Assembly: GCA_948665105.1 (NCBI GenBank)
Contig: CAPNGW010000002.1
Location: forward strand, 1-37,723
Source: an uncultured Lachnospiraceae bacterium
Lineage (GTDB): Bacteria; Bacillota; Clostridia; Lachnospirales; Lachnospiraceae
Direction of reading: 5' to 3'
DNA: 37,723 nucleotides
Of the stretch, positions 4,149 through 32,718 are shown one piece after another. Both the position numbers and the translations under genes were made by a program. Numbering within the stretch: position 1 is the stretch's first letter; each line of letters starts with the position of its first letter. Under the pieces are notes generated by a model, which was not told where the DNA came from, searched no databases, and saw nothing but the letters and a program-made list of their open reading frames with translations.

Positions 4149-4904
4149 ATGTTTACAAAAGAGGATTGCTGCTATAGCAACTATCGAAGGATTCTTGGGG
4201 ATATCAAGGAGACAGGAGTATACTGTGACTATGCGGATGTGCTTTCTGAGAAACGGGAAAAATATCTTGTCTTGAGACATGATATAGAATTTTCCATTGA
4301 CAGAGCCTATGAATTGTCCAAAATTGAATCGGAGGAAGGGATTAAAAGCTCCTATTTTGTTCAGATAACGAACAATGCGTATAACGCTTTTTCCGAGAAA
4401 AATATCAGGATGATACGGGACATGAGCCGGAGGGGGCACCATATCGGCCTTCACTATCATCGCAGTGACGTGGAGGGGCTTGAGGCGTTAAAGGCAGAAA
4501 TAACATACCAGGGGGGGGTATTTTCTGCAATGACCGGTGTGCCTGTGGACCGGTTTTCCTTCCACAGGCCTCTTAGAGAGCATCTGGAGGCGGATATTGA
4601 GCTTCCGGGACTCATCAACACCTATGGTCATCAATTCTTTGTGCTGACGGATGACACGGACAAGCCACTGGAAGTGAAGTATATTGCGGACTCCAACCAT
4701 CAGTGGAAGTATGGGCTTGCCACAAAAGAATATTTCTCCCACTATAATAAAATTCAATTATTGATACACCCGCTGTCCTGGTCTCCGGATGGGGCAGAGC
4801 ACGTTGAGAATTTCCAGGCTATTGTGAAGGAAAAGCATGACGAGCTGGTGGAAACCATTGAAGGGGAATGGAAGATTTTTGATGAGCTTCGGGGGAAATT
4901 ATGA
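4149..4904 (+). CDS. Hypothetical protein, possibly a divergent polysaccharide deacetylase-like enzyme
   Basis: ATG 4149 lies 7 nt after the GGAGG RBS and just after the upstream stop; the tracked 4098 start lies inside the upstream gene. Motifs LVLRHDIEFS, HHIGLHYHR and FSFHRP loosely resemble metal-binding deacetylase blocks. The function is weakly supported. Confidence 0.55.
   Translation: MFTKEDCCYSNYRRILGDIKETGVYCDYADVLSEKREKYLVLRHDIEFSIDRAYELSKIESEEGIKSSYFVQITNNAYNAFSEKNIRMIRDMSRRGHHIGLHYHRSDVEGLEALKAEITYQGGVFSAMTGVPVDRFSFHRPLREHLEADIELPGLINTYGHQFFVLTDDTDKPLEVKYIADSNHQWKYGLATKEYFSHYNKIQLLIHPLSWSPDGAEHVENFQAIVKEKHDELVETIEGEWKIFDELRGKL
4511..4518 (+). repeat. Poly-G tract (G8), in frame within CDS 4149-4904
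   Basis: Directly counted: cag ggg ggg gta encodes Q-G-G-V. Confidence 0.95.
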
Positions 4905-7962: not shown

Positions 7963-8493
7963 ATGATCCGAAAGCTGTTTGTGACAGTATATCATACAAT
8001 ATATGCCAGATTGAATCACGTAAAATATGTCAGGCATATTGGCGTGAATATAAAAGGGAAATTGTATATATATGGAAATCCCCTTCACATGTTCGGCACA
8101 GAGCCCTGGTGTATCACCCTGGGCGACAATGTTCACATTACCCAGGAGGTTCTTTTTGTTACCCATGACGGAGGCACCCTGCTGTTTCGGAACCGCCAGC
8201 CTGACTTGGAAATTACAAAGCCCATTGTGGTGGGAGATAATGTGTATATCGGTGTGCGGAGTATTATCATGCCGGGAGTTACCATTGGAAATGATGTAAT
8301 TGTAGCAGCGGGCTCGGTGGTCACCAAGGATGTCCCGGATCATTCGGTGGTGGGGGGGATACCGGCACGGGTGATTAAAACCAGTGACGAATATTTTGAA
8401 AAAATCAAAAAAGAGAGTCTCCACCTGGGCCATCTGAAAGGGAAAGAGAAGGATTTGGCATTACGTAAGTATTATGGATATCCTCTGAAGTGA
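7963..8493 (+). CDS. Hexapeptide-repeat O-acetyltransferase (WcaF/maltose acetyltransferase-like)
   Basis: ATG 7963 lies directly after the upstream stop; the tracked 7924 start overlaps the upstream gene. Hexapeptide turns [50 protein letters not shown]. It also contains a G7 run at 8352-8358. Confidence 0.85.
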
Positions 8494-13569: not shown

Positions 13570-14763
13570 ATGAGTGTAGAGATTGTTGGAGAAAGATGTG
13601 TAGGGTGTGAGACATGCTCACACGTATGTAATCAAAATGCCATTAAAATGATGCCGGACAGCCGGGGATTTCTCTATCCGGTCATTGACAGGGAAGCGTG
13701 TAATCAGTGCAATGCATGCAGCAACCACTGCCCGGTATTGAATGAGAATACGGGGGGGGGGTGTAAGCCATATGAAGAAAAGGTGTATGCCGCCTGGAGC
13801 AAGGACAGGGATTTATTACAAAGAAGCTCATCCGGAGGAATGTTTTTTGAGATTGCCGCATCCATATTGGGGGACGGCGGTCTTGTGTGCGGTGCAGTAT
13901 ACAGGGAGGATTATTATGGGGTCAGGCATATTGTAGCGGACATCCTGGATGATGTAAGAAGGATGCAGGGCTCAAAATACTCCCAGAGTGCCATGGAAGA
14001 CTGCTTCCCAAAGCTTCGGGAAGCTCTTGAAGCAGGAAGAAGGGTTCTCTTTAGCGGAACACCTTGCCAGGTGGCGGCGTGTTACCGGTTTTTAAGGAAA
14101 AAATATGATAATTTTTATACGGTATCACTAATTTGCCATGGCCCCATTGCACCTAAGATCTTGGAAGAATATATAAAATCCCTGGAGAAAAAGCATCAGG
14201 CATCCATATGCAATTTTACCATGCGGTATAAAAAGGATGGGAAAACGCTGCCCCTCTATTACCGGGCGGAATTCTCTGACGGAACAACGGAAATAAATCC
14301 CTTTTACAGCTCCCTGTACGGAGAAATATTTGCCAGCAATCTGGTTATGCGTCAATCCTGCTATGAATGTCAGTTTAAGCAGCAGCCGTATGTGGGAGAT
14401 ATTATCATAGGCGATTTTAAAGGAATCGAGTACACGAAGCTGCCCCACAACAGGAAGGGCACCTCTGCGGTGATTATTAACAGTGACAAAGGAAGGAAGC
14501 TGTGGGAGTCACTGTCTGACAGAATCGAGTCCTGGGAAAGTGATATAGAGGTAGTGAAAAAATATAATCAGCGGATAAGGTCGTCTGTTCCAATGCCGGA
14601 CCAGGGGAAGGTAAAGCTATTCTGGGAGAAGCTTTTAGATGAGGGAATAAACGGAGTGTATCCCCTGGTGCACAGGGAATATACCCCGTACCAGAAAATG
14701 AAAAACTCCCTGAAAGCCTTTCTGGTACATAACCTGGGGGTGGCAAGGAGAAGGAGGAAGTAG
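13570..14763 (+). CDS. FrhB-like (coenzyme F420 hydrogenase/dehydrogenase beta-subunit family) 2x[4Fe-4S] protein
   Basis: ATG 13570 follows the AGGAGG RBS; the tracked 13495 start overlaps wzy. Two ferredoxin Cys clusters are present, CVGCETCSHVC and CNQCNACSNHCP, followed by an FrhB-like body. This family often accompanies pyruvyl transferases in cps loci. Confidence 0.75.
   Translation: MSVEIVGERCVGCETCSHVCNQNAIKMMPDSRGFLYPVIDREACNQCNACSNHCPVLNENTGGGCKPYEEKVYAAWSKDRDLLQRSSSGGMFFEIAASILGDGGLVCGAVYREDYYGVRHIVADILDDVRRMQGSKYSQSAMEDCFPKLREALEAGRRVLFSGTPCQVAACYRFLRKKYDNFYTVSLICHGPIAPKILEEYIKSLEKKHQASICNFTMRYKKDGKTLPLYYRAEFSDGTTEINPFYSSLYGEIFASNLVMRQSCYECQFKQQPYVGDIIIGDFKGIEYTKLPHNRKGTSAVIINSDKGRKLWESLSDRIESWESDIEVVKKYNQRIRSSVPMPDQGKVKLFWEKLLDEGINGVYPLVHREYTPYQKMKNSLKAFLVHNLGVARRRRK
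13752..13761 (+). repeat. Poly-G tract (G10), in frame within the FrhB-like CDS
   Basis: Directly counted: acg ggg ggg ggg tgt encodes T-G-G-G-C. Confidence 0.95.
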
Positions 14764-14764
14764 A

Positions 14765-16194
14765 ATGCTATTTAACTCATGGCAGTTTTTGCTTTTTATG
14801 ATAATTATTTTTGGCGGTTACTGGGCAATACGCCCCCGATACCGATACTTGTTCCTGCTGGCAGGAAGCTTAATATTTTATGCCAGCTGGGGGCCGGAGT
14901 ATCTCATCTATCTGGCGCTGACGGTGGCGCTGACCTATTGCTCTGGCTTACTGCTTGAAATTTTTGAGGGGGGGGGCAAACATTAGTTCTTATAACAACT
15001 GTTCTTCTGGCAGTTGGCGCACTGATGTTTTTTAAATACACAGGATTTTTGGCGGATATTTTATACAGAACATTTTCTGTGGAAGACCCTCAGACTGTCA
15101 GCATTGTGGCACCCATTGGATTTTCTTTTTATTTGTTTCAGGCTTTAGGCTATGTCATTGATGTTTACCGAAAGAAATATAAGCCGGAGAAGAACCTGGC
15201 CCGGTATGCCCTGTTTGTTTCCTTCTTTCCCCAGGTGATTTCAGGGCCCATTGGCCGGGGAAGGGATTTATTACCGCAATTTCATGGGAATGTAAGCTTT
15301 CAATACGAAGGGGCCATGTATGGAGTAAAGCAGTTTTGCGTGGGCCTGTTTAAAAAGATGGTAGTTTCCAATACCCTTGGAATGATGGTGGATTCCGTTT
15401 ATGGGAACGTCCATGGGTACAAGGGCTTTGTGCTGGCAACAGCAAGCATATTATATATGATACAAATTTACTGTGATTTTTCAGGATATTCCGATATGGC
15501 CATTGGCTGCGCCAGATTACTTGGAATAGAGCTTAAGGAGAACTTTAAGCTGCCGTATTTTTCAAAATCAATTCGTGAGTTCTGGAGACGCTGGCATATT
15601 TCCCTGTCCTCCTGGTTCAGAGACTATTTATACATCCCCCTGGGTGGAAACAGAAAGGGACAGGCACGAAAGAGGATAAATATCTTTTTGACATTTTTAG
15701 TCAGCGGATTATGGCACGGAGCCAATTACACCTATGTGGTGTGGGGAGGCCTTCACGGAATGCTGCAGGTCCTGGAGGACATTTTCATCGGAGGGAAGAT
15801 TAGAACAGGAAAAGGCTGCTGGCCTGTAAACCTCTTAAAGCACGCTTGCGTGCTATGCTTACTTCTTGTTACCTGGATTTTCTTCCGGGCGGAAAGTGTA
15901 AGCGATGCATTCTATGTATTGACCAATATGCTGTCCGGAATTGGAAAGGCAGGGTATTTGAAAGCAGGAATCAGTGGCCTGGGGTTGGACAAGGTTACCC
16001 TTGCCACCACTGTGGTCTCCATACTGGTCCTTGCAATCATAGACAGTATTTCTTATATATGTGGAGATGTCATTGAGAAAGTAAGTAATATGAAGCTGGT
16101 ACTGCGCTGGAGCATTTACATCATTTTTGTGATGATTATCATAGTGTTTACACCAGCCGTAGTGTCAACGGAATTTATATATTTCCAATTTTAG
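14765..16194 (+). pseudogene. MBOAT #1 (AlgI/DltB-like membrane-bound O-acyltransferase), frameshifted at a G9 tract (phase-OFF allele or homopolymer error)
   Basis: ORFs 14765-14986 and 15025-16194 are the N- and C-terminal parts of one MBOAT. The first part starts MLFNSWQFLLF; the second carries YCDFSGYSDMAIG, FWRRWHISLSSWFRDYLYIPLGG and GLWHGA. The downstream frame is already open from 14977 (QTLVLITTVLLAVGALMFFKYTGF). One extra G joins the two frames. Confidence 0.85.
14968..14976 (+). repeat. Poly-G tract (G9) at the MBOAT #1 frameshift site
   Basis: Directly counted. As sequenced it reads gag ggg ggg ggc aaa cat tag, which terminates. Confidence 0.95.
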
Positions 16195-16209: not shown

Positions 16210-17142
16210 ATGAAGAAATTTGTGCTTAAGCTTGGACTTTTTGTTGTTTTGGTAGTTGGAATTTATCTGTCAGGTGTGGCGGCAGGCCAGCTCCTTCCGC
16301 CCCAGTACACCAATTCATTTAATGCTTCCCTGCTGGATAAGATGGAACGGGCAGAGGATATAGAGGAGCCTAAGCTGCTGGTGATTGGCGGAAGCAATAT
16401 CGTATTTGGCATAAACTCCCGGCTATTGGAGGAAGAATTCCAGATGCCGGTGGTGAATATGGGGGTAAATGCCGGTATGATGAGTGAATTTCAGCTGAAT
16501 GTGGCAAAGAAATATATCCGTGAAGGCGATATTGTTATTTTAGGCTTTGAGTATGGAGCATATACCTCGGAACAGATGAACCCCACAACCGCATGGTATA
16601 CCATAGAGAACTACCCGGAGCTTTGGAGGTGTGTGCCCAATATGGAGAAGCCGGCGTTATTACGTTTTTATCCGTACTATTTTGGAGAAAAACTGATTGC
16701 CTTTTTAAAGGGGGGAGACCAGATTCCCGACCAGCCGGAATATGTACGTACCAATTTTGACGAATACGGGGATTTTTCCTTTTACAGAAAAGAAAATGTC
16801 AGGAAAGATATTGCCCGGAATACGGTGATACAGGAGGCAGAGATAGAGGATAATGTAATTGAAAAAATAAATGAATTTTGTGAGGAAGCAGGAAAGAAGG
16901 GGGTAACTGTATACCTGACCTTTCCGGCGCTGGATGAGGAATGTGTGGCTTCAAGCCCACAGGATATAGAAGAATTTGAAAAGAAAATCAGAGAAAGTGT
17001 GGACTGCCCGGTTATTTCAAGGTGCCATACGTATATCATGGAGAGTAAATTTTTTTATGATACCAATTATCATCTAAATACAGAGGGAGCCAAAATCAGA
17101 ACAAAGCTTTTGATTTCGGATATGAGAGATAAAATATTTTGA
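16210..17142 (+). CDS. Membrane-anchored protein, candidate DltD/SGNH-like extracytoplasmic acyltransferase partner
   Basis: N-terminal signal-anchor (KLGLFVVLVVGIYLSGVAAG), an early GGSN block (LLVIGGSNIVFG) and a late Asp/His block (FFYDTNYHLNTEG). It lies immediately downstream of MBOAT #1. The motifs match DltD/SGNH only loosely. Confidence 0.45.
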   Translation: MKKFVLKLGLFVVLVVGIYLSGVAAGQLLPPQYTNSFNASLLDKMERAEDIEEPKLLVIGGSNIVFGINSRLLEEEFQMPVVNMGVNAGMMSEFQLNVAKKYIREGDIVILGFEYGAYTSEQMNPTTAWYTIENYPELWRCVPNMEKPALLRFYPYYFGEKLIAFLKGGDQIPDQPEYVRTNFDEYGDFSFYRKENVRKDIARNTVIQEAEIEDNVIEKINEFCEEAGKKGVTVYLTFPALDEECVASSPQDIEEFEKKIRESVDCPVISRCHTYIMESKFFYDTNYHLNTEGAKIRTKLLISDMRDKIF

Positions 17143-23382: not shown

Positions 23383-24894
23383 ATGCAGATATCAATTTTA
23401 GATTATTTGGAAAATTCTGCAAGCCGCTTTCCGGAAAAAATTGTATTTTCGGAGGAAAAGAAACAGATTTCCTATGGCCAATTAGAAAAAACGGCAAAAG
23501 CAGTGGGAAGCAGTATTATAAAAACGGCACAGGGGGTATACAAGCGGCCAATCGTAGTGTTCCTTGACAAGGGAATCGATGTGCTGATTTCCTTTATGGG
23601 CATCGTTTACAGTGGAAATTTCTATACCCCCATAGATGTTCATATGCCGGTTTCCAGAATAAATAAGATTTTAGAGACTCTGCAGCCGGAAATGATGATT
23701 ACGGATGAGGAGCATCTTCACCTCGTAAAAGAAACGGCGTTTGCCAAACACGTATTACTGTTTCAGGAGGCGGCGCAGGCAGAGATATTGACAGAGCAGC
23801 TTGAAAATATCAGGGAGAGAATGACAGATACGGATTTGCTGTACGTACTGTTTACATCGGGCTCCACAGGAACACCCAAGGGGGTTACAATCTGCCACAA
23901 GTCAGTGATTGACTATACGGATTATATCACAGATAAATTTGATATTACTGAAAAGGAAATTTTTGGAAATCAGGCACCTTTTTATTTTGACAATTCCATT
24001 TTAGATATTTATTGCACCTTAAAGGCCGGGGCAACCATGCATATCATTCCAAAGGAGCTGTTTGGACAGCCGGTACTGCTTTTGGAATATTTAAAGAACC
24101 AGCGGATAAATATTATTTTCTGGGTTCCTTCCGCCCTTATCATGGTCTCCAAATTAAAGGCTTTTCGGAATGTAGATATCTCGGAAACTTTGCGTAAGGT
24201 ACTGTTCTGTGGAGAGGTAATGCCAAATAAGCAGTTGAATATATGGCGAAAATATTTGCCGCATGTATTGTATGCCAATTTGTATGGCCCCACCGAGATT
24301 ACAGACGCATGTACCTGTTATGTGGTAGACCGGAAATTTGAGGACAATGAGCCTTTGCCCATTGGCACTCCCATGGGAAATACCGGGATTCTTGTGCTGA
24401 ATGAGGGGGATGAGCTGGTGAAGGGTGACGAGATTGGCGAGCTCTGCGTAAGGGGGACCTGCCTGTCTCCTGGCTATTATAATAATCCCGAAAAAACCAG
24501 GGAGGCGTTCATACAAAACCCCTTGAATAAAGCTTATCTGGAATGGATTTATCGAACAGGAGATCTGGTGCGGTATAACGAGTACGGGGAACTGATTTAT
24601 CTGTCCAGAAAGGATTTCCAGATTAAGCATATGGGGCACCGAATCGAACTGGGAGAAATTGAGAATGCTGTTTCCTCCATGGAGGGGATGTCCTCCTGCT
24701 GCTGCTTGTATGATGAAAAGAGAAGCAAGATTGTTCTCTTTATAGAAGAGGATTTAGAGAAGGAAACCATTATAAATGGTATTAAGAATCTGGTGCCGGA
24801 CTATATGTACCCGGGTAAGGTGATTAAGCTGGATAAGCTGCCGATGAATGCCAATGGAAAAACAGACAGGGTAGCATTGAAACAATACTTATAG
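23383..24894 (+). CDS. DltA-like amino-acid adenylating enzyme (carrier-protein ligase), module 1
   Basis: Adenylation cores LFTSGSTGTPKGV, NQAPFYFDNSILDIY, FCGEVMP, LYGPTEITD, YRTGDLVRY..GELIYLSRKDFQIKHMGHRIELGEIE and NANGKTDR. It is collinear with B. subtilis DltA as I recall it. Confidence 0.85.
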   Translation: MQISILDYLENSASRFPEKIVFSEEKKQISYGQLEKTAKAVGSSIIKTAQGVYKRPIVVFLDKGIDVLISFMGIVYSGNFYTPIDVHMPVSRINKILETLQPEMMITDEEHLHLVKETAFAKHVLLFQEAAQAEILTEQLENIRERMTDTDLLYVLFTSGSTGTPKGVTICHKSVIDYTDYITDKFDITEKEIFGNQAPFYFDNSILDIYCTLKAGATMHIIPKELFGQPVLLLEYLKNQRINIIFWVPSALIMVSKLKAFRNVDISETLRKVLFCGEVMPNKQLNIWRKYLPHVLYANLYGPTEITDACTCYVVDRKFEDNEPLPIGTPMGNTGILVLNEGDELVKGDEIGELCVRGTCLSPGYYNNPEKTREAFIQNPLNKAYLEWIYRTGDLVRYNEYGELIYLSRKDFQIKHMGHRIELGEIENAVSSMEGMSSCCCLYDEKRSKIVLFIEEDLEKETIINGIKNLVPDYMYPGKVIKLDKLPMNANGKTDRVALKQYL

Positions 24895-24920
24895 ATATCA
24901 GGTAAGAAAGGCAGAAAAAA

Positions 24921-25154
24921 ATGGAAGAAAGAATTTTGGAAATTTTAGGAGAGGTGAATGAAGAAATCCTCTCATACGAGGGAGACCGGCTCACCAAGGA
25001 CAGTATTATAGATTCTTTTGAAATTATCAATATTGTTTCAGAGCTGGAGGAGGAATTTGATATTGAAATTGATGCGAAATATGTCGTTCATGAAAACTTT
25101 GAGAACAAGGACACAATTATCGCACTGGTAAAGAGGCTGGTGGAAGAGCAGTAG
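24921..25154 (+). CDS. DltC-like acyl/aminoacyl carrier protein, module 1
   Basis: 77 aa and acidic, with the phosphopantetheine-attachment context SIIDSFEIINIV (compare DltC LLDSFGTVELL). It lies between the adenylating enzyme and the MBOAT. Confidence 0.8.
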   Translation: MEERILEILGEVNEEILSYEGDRLTKDSIIDSFEIINIVSELEEEFDIEIDAKYVVHENFENKDTIIALVKRLVEEQ

Positions 25155-25167
25155 ATGAGGTTTCAAA

Positions 25168-26727
25168 ATGCAGTTTGCGTCTGTTGAATTTGGGATATTC
25201 TTTTTGCTGGTTTTAGGAATATATTATCTGGTTAATCAAAGACGAAGATGGATGGTATTGCTGGCTGCCAGTATGGTGTTCTGTGGACATTCTTCCCCAT
25301 GGCATTTCATTTACTTGATGATAGCAATCAGTGTCAGCTTTTTTGCCGCTAAAATCATTGAGAAGCTCCATGAGGATGAGGCGAGAGAGCTTTTTCATAA
25401 GAAGGATATCAGCAGGGAGGAAAAAAAGAAGCTTAAGAATCACTTTAAGAAGAAAAAGCAATGGGTCATAGGGGTCCTGCTTTTCCTTTTGCTGACAGTT
25501 ATTCTCGCACTCAAGCTGGCAAAAAAGCTTTCTCTCATTCAGGAAGGCGCATTGGGCATCCTGATTCCTTTGGGAATTTCTTATTATACATTGGTCATGA
25601 TTGGCTATTGCATAGATGTTTACAGGGAAAAATATCCGGCAGATTCCAATTTTTTTAAGTTCACACTTACAATTATGTATTTTCCCTCATTGCTCCAGGG
25701 ACCAATCAACCGCGTGGATGCGTTAAGGGAGCAATTATTTCAGGAGATACACTGGAATTATTTTGAGGTAAAAGCCGGATTGCAGAGAGCGGTCTGGGGA
25801 TTGTTTAAAAAGCTGGTGATTGCAGACAGGCTGGCAATTTTTGTGAATCAGATTTACGGTGATTTTGGTAATCAGGCAGGAAGCTTTTTGGCAGTCGGAA
25901 CCATTGCATATGCAATTCAGTTGTATGCAGATTTCTCTGGATACATGGATATCGCCATTGGCATCAGCAGAACCTTTGGCGTAAAGCTGGCAGAGAATTT
26001 TAAATGTCCGTACTTTTCTGTTTCAATCAGTGAATTTTGGAAAAAATGGCATATAACCTTGGGCGACTGGTTCAAGGATTACCTGATGTTTCCCTTTGCA
26101 ATGTCTCAGACAGGAAGAAACATAGGGAAGCAAGGACAGAGGATATTTGGAAAGCAGGGAGGCAAAAAGCTTACACTATACCTTGCAACTATGCTGGTGT
26201 GGTTTTCCACCGGCTTATGGCATGGGATTGAGTGGAACTTTATTACCTGGGGGGGGGTATACGGCGTAATAATGGTACTCTCTGATTTTCTGGACCCCCT
26301 TTTTGAAAAGATAAGGAATCGGTGGGGAATCACTAAGGAAAAACGTTGGTTTCGATTTTTTTGCTATATCAGAACCTTTTCCATCGTGTGCTTGGCGGAC
26401 ATTCTGTTCCGGGCGCCAGGATTGAGAGAGGCAGTTATAATCATAAAAAAGATTTTATTTGAATTCCAGGTAAGTGCAATAGAAAACACTGAAATTTGGC
26501 TTTTACAGCTTACAGAGCAGGACTATGTGGTTTTGGTGATATGTTTGATTGCCGGGCTTTTGGTGCATATACTGCATCAAAAGAGAAAAAGCGTTTCGGT
26601 CATATTAGAGCAAAGAAATGTAGTGACCAGATGGATGGTTTATTTCGGGATTACCTGGATTATCATTTTGTTTGGGATATATGGAAGCGGGTATTCGTTG
26701 GAAGGCTTTGCTTATATGCAGTTTTAG
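25168..26727 (+). CDS. MBOAT #2 (DltB/AlgI-like), intact
   Basis: 519 aa and polytopic, with YADFSGYMDIAIG, FWKKWHITLGDWFKDYLMFPF, GLWHGIEW and the C-terminal ...GFAYMQF-stop. It contains an in-frame G9 tract. Confidence 0.9.
   Translation: MQFASVEFGIFFLLVLGIYYLVNQRRRWMVLLAASMVFCGHSSPWHFIYLMIAISVSFFAAKIIEKLHEDEARELFHKKDISREEKKKLKNHFKKKKQWVIGVLLFLLLTVILALKLAKKLSLIQEGALGILIPLGISYYTLVMIGYCIDVYREKYPADSNFFKFTLTIMYFPSLLQGPINRVDALREQLFQEIHWNYFEVKAGLQRAVWGLFKKLVIADRLAIFVNQIYGDFGNQAGSFLAVGTIAYAIQLYADFSGYMDIAIGISRTFGVKLAENFKCPYFSVSISEFWKKWHITLGDWFKDYLMFPFAMSQTGRNIGKQGQRIFGKQGGKKLTLYLATMLVWFSTGLWHGIEWNFITWGGVYGVIMVLSDFLDPLFEKIRNRWGITKEKRWFRFFCYIRTFSIVCLADILFRAPGLREAVIIIKKILFEFQVSAIENTEIWLLQLTEQDYVVLVICLIAGLLVHILHQKRKSVSVILEQRNVVTRWMVYFGITWIIILFGIYGSGYSLEGFAYMQF
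26249..26257 (+). repeat. Poly-G tract (G9), in frame within MBOAT #2
   Basis: Directly counted: tgg ggg ggg gta encodes W-G-G-V. Confidence 0.95.
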
Positions 26728-26743
26728 GTGAATAGGATATCAA

Positions 26744-27535
26744 ATGATGATAAGGATAGAAAACGGCGAGGAATTTTATTCAATATTAAAAGCGTTTAAG
26801 AAGAAGAACAGGAGAATAATATCTAATTTTTTGATGTTTCCGGAAGAGCTTGAAAAGCTGATGAGAGAAAAGAAAGTTTTTTACATGGAGGGGGAGGCAG
26901 GGATTAGCCTTTTTGTGGAGTATGAAGCACACTTTTCTTTTTACTTTTTCTACAAAGGATTGGATGTACCCATAGAAGTAAGAAGATTGGATAAGCCGGT
27001 TGCCTGCGAGATATTTACGAAGAATCAGTTGGAAGAAGGGATAGATGAGAGATTTATAAAAGAAAATTTTCGACAAATAGGTATTTATAAAAGATATATC
27101 TTAAAAAGTGAAAATATTCATGATGTAAAAAGTGGGAACTCCGTTAGGAAAAAAGCAGGAGCAATACATGAAGTCTGGGATGGCATAAAAGAAAACTTTA
27201 ATGTGTTGACGGACCATCTGGTATCTCAGGATGAAATGGAAGAGAAATATGCGGATAAACAATTTTTTTATTATAATCAGGCAAATAGAATAGAAGGTGC
27301 GTTGATTCATGAAACGAAAAATAAAAAATCTGTATTGGAATATATCTTTGTATATCCGGAATTTCGAAAAAAAGGTGTTGCCAGGGAATTGCTGGAAACC
27401 TGGCTTGCCACTTATTTTCAAGCAATAAATAAATTTGAATTATGGGTAAGTACAGAAAATAGGGAGGCTATAGAATTGTACAAAAGATATGGATTCCAGG
27501 AGGATGGCCTTATAAAATATGTTTATTTGATATAA
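26744..27535 (+). CDS. GNAT-family N-acetyltransferase with an uncharacterised N-terminal domain
   Basis: C-terminal GNAT motif A, IFVYPEFRKKGVARELLETWL, followed by AIELYKRYGFQEDG. The gene is very AT-rich. Confidence 0.7.
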   Translation: MMIRIENGEEFYSILKAFKKKNRRIISNFLMFPEELEKLMREKKVFYMEGEAGISLFVEYEAHFSFYFFYKGLDVPIEVRRLDKPVACEIFTKNQLEEGIDERFIKENFRQIGIYKRYILKSENIHDVKSGNSVRKKAGAIHEVWDGIKENFNVLTDHLVSQDEMEEKYADKQFFYYNQANRIEGALIHETKNKKSVLEYIFVYPEFRKKGVARELLETWLATYFQAINKFELWVSTENREAIELYKRYGFQEDGLIKYVYLI

Positions 27536-29418: not shown

Positions 29419-29443
29419 TTTTATGCAGCGGAGGATACCAAAG

Positions 29444-31020
29444 ATGTCTTACACATCATTACTTTTCTTTATATTTGTTATTGCACTGATTTTTGTCTAC
29501 TATATAGTGCCAAAGAGCTGGCAGTGGAAGGTACTGCTCATTGCAAATATCATATTCTATGCCTCCAATGGCGTAATACCACTTGTTTTCATAACAGCAA
29601 CCACTCTTTTGACATGGTTTGCAGCACTTTTATTGGAAAAGAAGGACCTCTGCCAGAGCAGGGAGCTGGAAGGGGAACCCCTTTCAAGGGAAGAGAAAAA
29701 CCAAATCAAGGTAGCGTATAAGAGACAGAAAAAAGGAATTCTCATACCTGTGCTCTTAATGGTATTTGGACTTCTTGCATATGCCAAATATACAAATTTT
29801 GGTATTGGTATTATTAATGGTATTGCAGGAGTGGACATGATACAAGTACAAAGTATCATCGTCCCCCTGGGAATCTCTTTTTACACTTTTATGTCCGTAG
29901 GATATATCCTGGATATCTACTGGAAAAAATATCCTGCGGAGCATAATTTCTTTAAGTATGCAACATTTACAACGTTTTTCCCCCATGTGGTACAAGGCCC
30001 CATTGGGCGCTATAATAAGCTGGCTCCGGAATTTTTCAAAGGAAGGCATTATGATTTTCGTCAAATGGTGTCTGGCTTTGAGTTATTTTTATGGGGACTT
30101 TTCCAAAAGCTAGTAATTGCTGACCGTCTCGGTATTTTTGTTGATAACGTTTTTGCAGACTACCAAAATACCGGGGGGGGGTATTTCTATTAACGCTGGC
30201 GTTTTATTCCATTCAAACGTATGCTGATTTCTCCGGCTGTATGGATATCTGCCGGGGGATTTCTGAGATTCTTGGAATCCATCTTGAGAAGAACTTCAAT
30301 CATCCGTATTTTGCAAAAACCATACCGGAGTTCTGGCAGAGATGGCATATCTCTATGGGAGCATGGTTTAAGGATTACCTGTTTCTACCCATTTCCAATT
30401 CATCCTTTGTAAAAAAATCAAGTAAAAAATTAGGAGTGAAATATGGCTCCGGTGTCAGAAAAAAATTTGCGGCGAGCTTTCCTGTTGCCATTGTCTGGCT
30501 GGCCACCGGTGTCTGGCATGGCGCCGGATGGACCTTTATTTTCTGGGGATTGTTCCATGGGTGCCTGACAATCGGAGGTACGGTTTTTTCTGAAAGAATC
30601 TCCAGGCTCACATCCGTATTACATATTCCAACAAAAGCATTTTGGTGGAAATTATTTCAGATGTCCAGAACCTTTTTCCTGTGCTGTATAGGAAGAATTT
30701 TCTTTCGGGCTCCGGATTTGCAGGTGGCGGGGCATATTATAAAGAAAATAACCACAGATTTGCAATATCAATCACTGTTTAGTGGACACATATTTCAATT
30801 CGGTTTGGGCAGAGAGAATATGATGATAGCCTTGGCCTCCATTGGTATTTTATGGAGCGTCAGCATGCTGCAGGAAAGATGCTCTATTCGGGAAAAGGTG
30901 GCGAAGCAGAATATTGTAATGCGGTACGCATTGCTTTACATCGCGATTTTTTCTATTTTGATTTTAGGTATCTATGGGCCAGGTTATGATACATCAACTT
31001 TTATTTACAATGCATTTTAA
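29444..31020 (+). pseudogene. MBOAT #3 (DltB/AlgI-like), frameshifted at a G9 tract (phase-OFF allele or homopolymer error)
   Basis: ORFs 29423-30193 and 30241-31020 are two halves of one MBOAT. The likely start is ATG 29444 (MSYTSLLFF) after a GGAGGA RBS. The downstream frame is open from 30181 (VFLLTLAFYSIQTYADFSGCMDICRG). Later motifs are FWQRWHISMGAWFKDYLFLP and GVWHGAGW. One extra G joins the two frames. Confidence 0.85.
30173..30181 (+). repeat. Poly-G tract (G9) at the MBOAT #3 frameshift site
   Basis: Directly counted. As sequenced it reads acc ggg ggg ggg tat ttc tat taa, which terminates. Confidence 0.95.
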
Positions 31021-31035
31021 AGGAGGAACAAGAGA

Positions 31036-31254
31036 ATGGAACAGATTGTACAAATTATCAGAGAGATTTGCCCCACCATTGGTGAGCTGGAGGGAGTGAA
31101 GCTTGTCACAGACAAAATCATTGATTCCGTGGAGCTGGTGCAAATCATTTCTGACCTGGAAGAGGCGTTTCAGGTGGAAATTGATATGGAGGATATTGTG
31201 CCGGAAAATTTTGATACGGTAGAAGCGATTTGGAAGCTGATACAGCAGCTTTAG
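31036..31254 (+). CDS. Acyl carrier protein, module 2
   Basis: 72 aa and acidic, with the Ser attachment context KIIDSVELVQIISDLEEAF and a strong AGGAGG RBS upstream. Confidence 0.8.
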   Translation: MEQIVQIIREICPTIGELEGVKLVTDKIIDSVELVQIISDLEEAFQVEIDMEDIVPENFDTVEAIWKLIQQL

Positions 31255-31263
31255 GAGAGAGAA

Positions 31264-32718
31264 ATGTATACATCTGTGTTGGAAGCAATTTATAAGCATA
31301 GCAGGAGCAGGGCAAAGAGGCTGGCGGTTGCAGATGAGAAGCTATCTCTGAACTACGAAGAATTATGGAGGCTGATTGTCCTTAAGGCTTCAGTGCTGGG
31401 CGAGGGATTTGCCATCAGTGATTATGTGTTGGTGGAATGTTCTCAGGATGTGGCGTTTATTGTGAAATGTCTGGCTTGCCAGTACGCGGGCCTGATTAGT
31501 GTGCCTGTGGAAATGCAGGCGCCTTTGGAACGAATCTGGGAGCTTCAAAGGAAGCTGGGCACAACATCATTGATAGGCAGGGGGGATTATGAGATTGATA
31601 AGGAAGAGCTGTACTCTGCCTTTCAAGGTGATGCTGGCAATCAGCCTGCACCGGAGGGATTTCCCCGGAAGGATGTGGTGGCTGAGATTCTCTACACCAC
31701 CGGAACTACCGGAGAATCCAAAGGAATCGCAATTACACATGGCAATAATATTGCCATCACGGAAAATATTATCTGCGGAACCCAAATGGAGGAGGACAGT
31801 GTAGAATTGGTCCCCTTGCCCTTGAGCCATTCTCACGGGCTGAGAACGGTATACGCCAACCTTGTACATGGCAGTTCGGTGGTGGTTTGTGATGGTGTGC
31901 TTCAAATAAAAAGAATCTTTCAGTTAATAGGCCAATACCAGGTTACAGCCTTGGACTTATCTCCCAGCGCGGCCCAGGTGTTGATGAAGCTTTCCAAAGG
32001 AAAATTGAAGGATTACAGAGAGCAAATCAGATTCGTACAGCTGGGGACGGCAATGCTTTCAGAAAATGTGAAGGATTTATTACGCAGCACCTTTCCGGAG
32101 AGCAGGCTATATAACTTTTATGGTTCTACGGAAGCGGGAAGAACCTGCTCCTTGGACTTTAACCATGAAAGGGTTGGGGAAGGCTGTATTGGACATCCCA
32201 GCGTGAACGCGCGTTTTATCCTGGTGGATGAAGAGGGGGAAGAGATTACCCAAAGGGGAAGAGAGTATACCGGACGTTTGGCTGTTGCAGGCTCTATGAA
32301 TATGAAGGAGTATATAGGTGAGCCGGAGCTTACCGGGGAGGTTATGCATGGCGGATATATATATACCTCTGATATATCTTATATAGACGCAGAGGGTTTG
32401 GTATACGTACTGGGACGTGCAGATGATATTATTAATTACAAGGGCATAAAAATTTCTCCTGCAGAAGTGGAGGCAATTATTATAAAGTGTTCCGAAATAA
32501 AAGAATGCGCCCTTGTGGCGAAAGAGGACACAATGTGTGGCCAGATACCGGTACTGTTTGTTGTACCCGAAGAAGAATATGAGGAACAAAGGCTGGTGAG
32601 CCATATAAAAGAGCTTGTGGAAGATAATAAGAGGCCCAAATTAATAAAGAAGGTGGAGGAGCTTCCCAAAACATCAAATGGGAAGATATTAAGAAGAAGA
32701 CTGAGGGAGTGGTTGTGA
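31264..32718 (+). CDS. AMP-dependent acyl ligase (acyl-CoA synthetase/FAAL-like), module 2
   Basis: ANL superfamily cores LYTTGTTGESKGI, FYGSTEAGR, YIYTSDISYIDAEGLVYVLGRADDIINYKGIKISPAEVE and SNGKILRR. It has PLPLSHSHGL where amino-acid adenylation domains carry the FDxS Asp. Confidence 0.85.
   Translation: MYTSVLEAIYKHSRSRAKRLAVADEKLSLNYEELWRLIVLKASVLGEGFAISDYVLVECSQDVAFIVKCLACQYAGLISVPVEMQAPLERIWELQRKLGTTSLIGRGDYEIDKEELYSAFQGDAGNQPAPEGFPRKDVVAEILYTTGTTGESKGIAITHGNNIAITENIICGTQMEEDSVELVPLPLSHSHGLRTVYANLVHGSSVVVCDGVLQIKRIFQLIGQYQVTALDLSPSAAQVLMKLSKGKLKDYREQIRFVQLGTAMLSENVKDLLRSTFPESRLYNFYGSTEAGRTCSLDFNHERVGEGCIGHPSVNARFILVDEEGEEITQRGREYTGRLAVAGSMNMKEYIGEPELTGEVMHGGYIYTSDISYIDAEGLVYVLGRADDIINYKGIKISPAEVEAIIIKCSEIKECALVAKEDTMCGQIPVLFVVPEEEYEEQRLVSHIKELVEDNKRPKLIKKVEELPKTSNGKILRRRLREWL

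Follow-up and report, generated by a model that had tools for sequence, protein, structure and literature searches.

Two reading frames of MBOAT #1 meet at a G tract

In the 37,723-nt stretch of DNA analysed here (the window), the gene of an O-acyltransferase, MBOAT #1, begins in one reading frame and ends in another, and the frame changes at a run of nine G's. What kind of gene is this? It could be one state of a switch that works through the length of the tract, an intact gene in which one G was under-called, a gene in decay, or a gene whose G9 allele still gives rise to the full-length enzyme by recoding. The features on which the question turns are the following.

14765..16194, + strand: MBOAT #1 gene, AlgI/DltB-like O-acyltransferase, in two frames with the break at the tract
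14968..14976, + strand: G9, the putative switch homopolymer, of out-of-frame (OFF) length in the window and variable in length across assemblies
14765..14986, + strand: 73-aa ORF of the OFF allele, a conserved N-terminal MBOAT segment followed by GGGKH and a stop
14753..14757, + strand: Shine-Dalgarno sequence GGAGG, 7 nt upstream of the ATG at 14765

The tract comprises exactly nine G's, bordered by A 14967 on the left and C 14977 on the right, and the split of MBOAT #1 at this G9, which the original prediction had read from the letters of the DNA, is confirmed. The 73-aa ORF ends in ...LLLEIFEGGGKH-stop, with the stop codon at 14984-14986, and the same product, identical in sequence, is annotated in other assemblies too. 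The second frame had been described as open from 14977 through all the catalytic motifs to 16194. It was found to be open already from 14968, that is, through the tract itself; it reads QTLVLITTVLL... from 14977 and reaches its stop at 16194. One added G (G10) joins both frames into a stop-free protein of 476 aa, or 477 codons including the stop (about 477 aa had been given earlier), and the interval 14987-15024 is indeed not intergenic. Two G's fewer (G7) would also give a stop-free product, of 475 aa, while G8 or G11 leads into the third frame, where a stop is encountered at codon 90 or 91 with the flank of the window. With this flank the ON lengths are G10 or G13, and the allele held by the window is an OFF allele.

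The OFF product is complete up to a loop, and the catalytic core is left untranslated. A restart at the internal ATG 15025 would give a protein that misses the invariant MLFNS as well as the invariant residues F8, F11, Y19, S35, F38, Y39 and Y46, and no ribosome-binding site comparable to the GGAGG of the gene start is present upstream of this ATG.

The restored protein matches Pfam PF03062 with 102 bits (cut-off 27). Among solved structures, DltB (6BUG, E 3e-28) comes closest to it, the match covering residues 111-346 including the catalytic His of GLWHG; RWHISLS and GLWHG are both invariant in the alignment of homologues and both align to the DltB structure. Against the DltB model TIGR04091 it scored 157 bits, the cut-off being 375 bits, and it is not DltB proper. 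The best named MBOAT matches, at ~46% identity, carry the labels Lachnospiraceae bacterium or Clostridia bacterium; among the matches listed from a scan of genome contigs with the restored protein, the relatives have 35-45% identity.

Tract length varies between assemblies

The site was recovered at the DNA level in 17 assemblies, the window counted among them, by looking up exact copies of the neighbouring proteins and the members of their clusters in public assemblies. The differences in length are differences between samples. Six lengths were found, from G8 to G13; the gene is in frame in 6 of the 17 assemblies and out of frame in the other 11. According to the sequence to the left of the tract, the alleles (L numbers denote the individual loci) are distributed as follows.

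Flank TTTTTGA-Gn (window type, in frame at G10 and G13): G9 in the window, L002 (ERR7159397), L003 (GCA_948634295.1), L011 and L106; G10 in L012; G11 in L004 and L107; G12 in L105; G13 in L008
Flank TTTTGA-Gn (in frame at G8 and G11): G8 in L112; G10 in L113; G11 in L001; G12 in L110
Flank TCTGAGA-Gn (in frame at G9): G9 in L108 and L109; G8 in L111

ON alleles are present in each of the three sublineages. The G10 form that the original prediction had suggested looking for exists in another sample: L012 differs from the window by 4 substitutions in 1421 nt and encodes P0131, a protein of 476 aa. The closest full-length relative, P0001 (92% identity, 476 aa), carries G11 in the tract and stays in frame, the additional G being offset by one T fewer in the flank.

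Tract length is shown by these alleles to mutate much faster than the adjoining sequence. L105, L106 and L107 have G12, G9 and G11, respectively, with 0 substitutions in 1421 nt, and for L105 and L106 there are 0 substitutions in an additional 3.7 kb of flanks as well. L004 and L008, which come from the consecutive runs SRR30634799 and SRR30634800, have G11 and G13 with 0 substitutions in 3839 nt. In L109 and L111 (SRR11452016 and SRR11452018), the difference is between an ON allele (G9) and an OFF allele (G8), again with 0 substitutions, in 1408 nt. The same picture is seen among the annotated proteins, where the clusters hold full-length members of 475 or 476 aa beside N-terminal pieces of 72-74 aa or 89-90 aa and the matching C-terminal pieces.

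When JGI metagenome contigs were scanned for exact matches to the flanks of the tract, no further variants emerged, and the search of a plasmid collection gave no match. Logan contigs often start or end exactly at the tracts. The idea that such breaks prove mixed lengths within a sample was dropped, as weak Illumina reading of G runs explains them equally well.

The variation at the DNA level also bears on recoding. In that case programmed -1 ribosomal frameshifting, or slippage during transcription, would let the G9 allele still yield the full-length enzyme. The shift needed at G9 is indeed -1, long homopolymers can cause a polymerase or a ribosome to slip, and a low-level leak is possible. 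However, for alleles in the other wrong frame (the G8, G11 and G12 types) a shift in the opposite direction would be required, and length variation in the DNA suffices to explain both ON and OFF. G-only heptamers are poor slippery sites for ribosomal frameshifting, and the 100 nt downstream of the tract show no unusual fold (z -1.6; 13 of 200 shuffles fold equally well), so that the pairing of an efficient heptamer with a stimulatory structure, which marks a programmed -1 site, is not found here. We regard recoding as highly improbable, and switching through the length of the tract as the preferred reading.

Poly-G tracts of the locus

The tract exceeds chance. On the + strand of the window, the counts of G runs of lengths 2-6 drop 0.25-fold with each added G; by this decay 0.15 runs of at least nine G's are expected, and 4 were observed (Poisson P 2e-5), at 13752 (G10) and at 14968, 26249 and 30173 (each G9). 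Shorter tracts lie at 4511 (G8) and at 8352 (G7), and the longest C run in the window is 5. As all genes of the window lie on the + strand, the G's of every tract are in the coding strand. When dinucleotides were shuffled, the observed count was reached in 3 of 100 shuffles, which is a conservative test because the excess of GG made by the tracts is preserved. A further comparison was made with 80 loci around MBOAT homologues of other species: they contain 3 G/C runs of at least 8 in 1.42 Mb, against 5 in the 37.7-kb window, and are ~60-fold poorer in such runs per kilobase.

With five runs of at least 8 in the window, the original picture of a single switch site does not hold. Beyond the tract of MBOAT #1, the locus contains:

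30173..30181, + strand: G9, which splits MBOAT #3 (29423..30193 and 30241..31020) as a second OFF switch
26249..26257, + strand: G9, in frame within MBOAT #2 (25168..26727) of a Dlt-like module
13752..13761, + strand: G10, in frame in an FrhB/FdhB-like Fe-S gene (13570..14763), used as internal control
4511..4518, + strand: G8, in frame in a 251-aa ORF without assigned family (4149..4904)
8352..8358, + strand: G7 in a hexapeptide acetyltransferase (7963..8493), stable in this allele

Several of these sites differ in length or frame between alleles. With one G more, MBOAT #3 would read through without a break to give about 525 aa, and the gene is intact (510 aa) in L108 and L109. The tract at 4511 is G9 or G10, with the gene split, in L019, L020 and L021. 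In a second allele of the hexapeptide acetyltransferase the corresponding tract is G8, G9 or G10, and of these lengths G9 alone leaves the gene intact. The 14968 tract is therefore one among several poly-G switches on decoration genes of the locus.

Two tracts behave differently. The tract at 26249 is G9 in 6 of 6 other assemblies. The one at 13752, which lies 1.2 kb upstream of the switch on the same contigs, is G10 in all 8 covering sequences (7 other assemblies). The invariant G10 argues against sequencing noise, as it shows that the assemblies do not scramble a G10 at random. What speaks against the switch is that the 13752 and 26249 tracts are equally long and yet unvarying; selection for the ON state must be invoked for them.

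A rival reading is that the split of MBOAT #1 is an artefact of sequencing or assembly, with a true G10, an intact gene and one G under-called. Homopolymers of 9 or more are prone to error, several Logan contigs break right at poly-G tracts, which indicates that the tracts are hard to assemble, and MBOAT #1 and MBOAT #3 would both be mended by the same +1 correction. However, the tracts at 13752 (G10) and 26249 (G9) are in frame and intact, which they would not be after a systematic error of -1. G9 at 14968 recurs in at least four other assemblies, namely the independent NCBI MAG GCA_948634295.1 and Logan ERR7159397, ERR7159406 and SRR27125060, and the six lengths from 8 to 13, identical backgrounds included, go far past an error of +/-1. 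An artefact is thus very unlikely, though among the alternatives considered here it is slightly the less improbable. Between the two possibilities that the original prediction had left standing, a phase-OFF allele and a 1-nt under-call, the variation from G8 to G13 in identical backgrounds and the constancy of the G10 control favour the phase-OFF allele.

Selection on the coding sequence

In the protein, the tract falls in a hydrophilic loop at residues 65-75, which in an alignment with 10 more distant homologues is non-conserved, rich in K/R and without a Gly run. The ON alleles have 2 or 3 Gly encoded by the tract, and 4 in the case of L008 (G13). Because the loops of the homologues do without a Gly run, the G run is not kept for the function of the protein, and a variable number of Gly is tolerated in the loop. 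It has been retained all the same in three sublineages across dS ~0.35, despite their changed flanks.

A possible sign of convergence comes from a Muribaculaceae MBOAT (L065), in which an in-frame G9 lies within the same loop; the loop may be a place where poly-G switches are inserted repeatedly.

Between lineages, dN/dS of MBOAT #1 is 0.11-0.14 at dS 0.34-0.38, and this low value indicates that the coding sequence is under purifying selection. Such constraint is difficult to combine with the view that MBOAT #1 is a decaying pseudogene, in which an ordinary inactivating mutation happened to fall in a G run. What speaks for decay is that the fraction of out-of-frame alleles, 11 of 17, is near the two thirds expected of a freely drifting length, and that the gene of the SGNH-like partner has a nonsense codon, Q27*, in one relative (L113) whose MBOAT is OFF; from the latter it follows that the module can occasionally be lost outright. 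Further inactivating mutations in relatives, which had been named beforehand as the mark of decay, were looked for, and apart from this Q27* in the partner gene none was found: each of the 11 OFF alleles regains a stop-free ORF by one G more or less in the tract, with no second lesion in the MBOAT. Together with the retention of the tract and the presence of ON alleles in all three sublineages, this makes decay most improbable, and a maintained gene with a switch remains our preferred reading.

Partner genes and the polysaccharide locus

MBOAT #1 is followed by two genes that the original prediction had taken for DltD/SGNH-like members of the same module.

16210..17142, + strand: 310-aa protein, membrane-anchored and of SGNH fold as judged from an AF2 model, Foldseek and invariant residues
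17169..18467, + strand: 432-aa protein of no assigned family, which always adjoins the module with conserved synteny

The predicted module could be upheld in part. For the first of the two genes, the SGNH-like label is supported. The AF2 model built with 46 homologues (pLDDT 92) presents a transmembrane helix at the N-terminus and a further domain; this alignment-based model was used because the single-sequence model was poor (pLDDT 53). The top PDB matches found by Foldseek for this domain are SGNH esterases, i.e. rhamnogalacturonan acetylesterase, YxiM, PAF acetylhydrolase and GDSL lipases, with a probability of ~1.0 and a TM of just 0.4-0.5. Ser62-Asn63, Gly85, Gly106-Asp107 and His288 are invariant in the family, and one homologue matches PF16822 ALGX. 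The 310-aa protein itself has no Pfam match, and searches of NCBIfam and of PDB sequences were uninformative. From the model we propose that it is probably the extracytoplasmic transferase partner of MBOAT #1. For the 432-aa protein, the assignment could not be upheld: Pfam and NCBIfam gave no match, the search of PDB sequences was uninformative, and its comparison with the 310-aa family by hhalign gave a probability of 3%, which is not significant. It is an unproven candidate for a second partner.

The window as a whole is a polysaccharide locus of the Wzx/Wzy type, with an initiating transferase, glycosyltransferases, sugar-nucleotide enzymes, a flippase and a polymerase, and further with a pyruvyl transferase and its FrhB-like partner, an FnlA/B/C-like trio, a GNAT, a DUF6077 protein and an ABC transporter. 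It also contains two Dlt-like modules, of which the first consists of:

23383..24894, + strand: DltA-like adenylating enzyme
24921..25154, + strand: 77-aa carrier
25168..26727, + strand: MBOAT #2

In the second, the genes after MBOAT #3 are those of a 72-aa carrier and an acyl-AMP ligase. Unlike MBOAT #1, MBOAT #2 thus has DltA-like and DltC-like neighbours. The neighbours of MBOAT #1 are the FrhB-like gene and the gene of the SGNH-like protein; DltA and DltC are not adjacent. Given that no ligase or carrier adjoins it, and that its score is far under the DltB equivalog cut-off, the module of MBOAT #1 appears from its sequence to fit an AlgI/PatA type better than a Dlt type.

Proposed mechanism

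The observations agree with the features by which a contingency locus is recognised: the tract is over-represented, its length is polymorphic in identical backgrounds, both states occur in nature, and the gene is maintained. We are highly confident that an AlgI-like MBOAT O-acyltransferase is switched ON and OFF at the level of translation by the hypermutable G9 tract, which makes the site a contingency locus. G's would be gained or lost by slipped-strand mispairing in replication. A tract of G10 or G13 (for the flank of the window) would leave the frame uninterrupted and allow the 476-aa enzyme to be made, which together with the membrane-anchored SGNH-fold protein would O-acylate the polysaccharide outside the membrane. 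Any other length would halt translation at codon 74 or codon 91, with loss of this decoration. The acyl group is likely to be acetyl, since a ligase and a carrier are absent beside MBOAT #1. The switch would be reversible within one clone, and phage or host immunity would presumably be the selective agent.

A wider reading is that the locus is a multi-switch capsule decorator, with at least four independently slipping tracts and two long tracts held in frame; the four switching genes may be those of MBOAT #1, MBOAT #3, the hexapeptide acetyltransferase and the 251-aa protein. For this wider reading, we consider the chances of its being right or wrong to be evenly balanced. If it is true, each switch would govern an O-acyl or aminoacyl decoration of its own, a single genotype would give rise to a dozen or more surface types, and the locus would be the first case of Campylobacter-style multi-locus SSR phase variation described in gut Clostridia.

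Comparison with known systems

So far, stochastic changes of the capsule in gut commensals have mainly been put down to the invertible promoters of Bacteroides, and slippage at multiple loci is associated almost exclusively with pathogens. Whether multi-locus phase variation is confined to pathogens was called an open question in a 2025 review (PMC11868660), and a multi-switch locus of the kind considered above would bear on it. Public metagenome assemblies already reveal a slippage switch, and probably several, on polysaccharide acylation genes of an uncultured, Clostridia-like bacterium. In our literature searches, phase variation through a homopolymer turned up neither for Lachnospiraceae and other gut Clostridia nor for any MBOAT. 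The chief value of the finding is this multi-tract locus, together with a switch that is visible in public metagenome assemblies. Functional genes that are switched in this way will be mis-annotated in MAGs as pseudogenes or split ORFs. The system can be tested directly, because tract lengths counted per read can be related to pressure from the host, from phage or from antibodies.

Among gut bacteria, Bacteroides varies its capsules through invertible promoters (PMC3090145; Jiang 2019 as cited in PMC11868660). Capsules are diversified stochastically there as well as here, but in Bacteroides by site-specific inversion of promoter DNA, and here by slippage of repeats inside ORFs. In Bifidobacterium breve, a replication-slippage switch of pilus genes is known (PMC9187656). 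This switch, which may be a poly-G example, is the nearest commensal case of ON/OFF slippage; it concerns single pilus loci in a different phylum, whereas here a multi-tract polysaccharide locus is concerned.

The capsule and LOS loci of Campylobacter jejuni carry poly-G contingency genes (PMC4965091, PMC8437040). As in the present locus, intragenic G tracts of ~8-13 nt frameshift enzymes of surface-glycan modification on and off, and multiple switches per polysaccharide locus produce combinatorial diversity of the surface. C. jejuni is an AT-rich pathogen of the Campylobacterota, in contrast to the bacterium studied here, which is uncultured, probably belongs to the Lachnospiraceae and has 44% GC, with MBOAT acyltransferases as the switched genes. 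C. jejuni is known to be devoid of MutS and MutL.

Two-component O-acylation systems comprise AlgI/AlgJ/AlgX for alginate, PatA/PatB for peptidoglycan and DltB/DltD for teichoic acid. Like them, the present module places an MBOAT with conserved His motifs next to a membrane-anchored, SGNH-like extracytoplasmic protein; unlike in DltB proper, the MBOAT lies under the TIGR04091 cut-off, and the partner is without a Pfam match. We know of no AlgI/PatA/DltB-type system that is switched by an SSR.

Phase-variable O-acetyltransferases of capsules are represented by pneumococcal wciZ (15B/15C) and by meningococcal OatC/OatWY. NeuO of E. coli K1 is another such enzyme (PMC3046976). In all of them, as proposed here, a repeat in the ORF of the acetyltransferase toggles O-acylation of the capsule and leaves synthesis of the backbone unaffected. 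Those enzymes are of the soluble hexapeptide type or of the acyltransferase-3 type, with heptanucleotide, TA or short homopolymer repeats, whereas the locus described here combines an MBOAT and a separate SGNH-fold partner with a tract of G9-G13. The class of mechanism is already known, both from poly-G contingency genes and from phase-variable O-acetyltransferases; this member of it is new.

Dlt-like modules and the tracts within them

The capsule-type locus of the window holds two Dlt-like modules, which suggest that aminoacyl or acyl esters are placed on the polysaccharide. The modules and the poly-G tracts lying in them are as follows.

23383-26727: first Dlt-like module, consisting of a DltA-like adenylating enzyme, a 77-aa DltC-like carrier and MBOAT #2
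26249-26257: G9 in MBOAT #2, in frame
29423-32718: second Dlt-like module, consisting of MBOAT #3, a 72-aa carrier and an acyl-AMP ligase
30173-30181: G9 in MBOAT #3, splitting the gene into ORFs 29423..30193 and 30241..31020

The DltA-like enzyme of the first module matches the amino-acid adenylation domain with 346 bits. In the second module, MBOAT #3 is broken by its G9 tract in the same way as MBOAT #1, and its restoration likewise takes one additional G, giving a seamless protein of about 525 aa; the carrier and then the ligase follow downstream. An intact counterpart of 510 aa, with the tract in the form 'CA' plus G9, is found in two relatives, L108 (SRR17406696) and L109 (SRR11452016). 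These two assemblies also represent a variant of the locus in which the first Dlt-like module is missing together with the GNAT gene (window 23383-27535) and DUF6077 directly adjoins the 490-aa membrane protein.

Varying and fixed tracts elsewhere in the locus

Three further tracts lie upstream of MBOAT #1.

4511-4518: G8 in ORF 4149..4904, in frame in the window, encoding a 251-aa protein
8352-8358: G7 in the hexapeptide acetyltransferase gene (7963..8493), stable, interrupted
13752-13761: G10 in the gene of an FrhB-like Fe-S protein, in frame

A family match was not found for the 251-aa protein. L019 and L020 carry G9 at the tract of its gene and L021 carries G10, and the gene is split there into parts of 142 and 124 aa. 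The hexapeptide acetyltransferase has a second allele with a tract at the same codon, being ON with G9 (L004) and OFF with G10 (L105 and L108) or G8 (L106).

The long tracts of the FrhB-like gene and of MBOAT #2 are unchanged in all of the other assemblies covering them (7/7 and 6/6, respectively), while neighbouring tracts differ between assemblies. The simplest guess for this fixed length is selection for the ON state. The second lineage is devoid of the G10 in the FrhB-like gene and has TCCTGG.

Across the 17 assemblies, MBOAT #1 and the two partner genes downstream of it show only one lesion outside a tract: a nonsense codon, Q27* (CAG to TAG), in the SGNH-like partner gene of L113 (SRR33454337, 4204-5145). 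MBOAT #1 of the same strain is OFF, with G10 in its flank type.

Contig ends and a chimeric gene call

The ends of Logan short-read contigs (L005, L007, L010, L014-L017, L020 and L022-L024) repeatedly coincide exactly with poly-G tracts, L005 having one at both ends, and the tract of the 251-aa gene is the starting point of three short Logan contigs. Such ends may arise because the reads differ in tract length or because G runs sequence poorly, the two being indistinguishable here.

In one relative (P0125, Logan), the alternative frame from the ATG at window position 14779 is open right into the MBOAT core, and a gene caller therefore made a chimeric protein of 471 aa with a nonsense N-terminus, an annotation artefact for which the switch is responsible.

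A similar tract in another phylum

An MBOAT homologue with 37% identity, from a different phylum, carries an in-frame G9 at 10215-10223 of L065 (an uncultured Muribaculaceae MAG, CANQQE010000028.1). The tract lies in the stretch encoding SYPKWGGVIAG, at about codon 72, in the same loop as the tract of MBOAT #1. Since only three G/C runs of at least 8 nt occur in the 1.42 Mb searched, the shared loop position looks like convergence.
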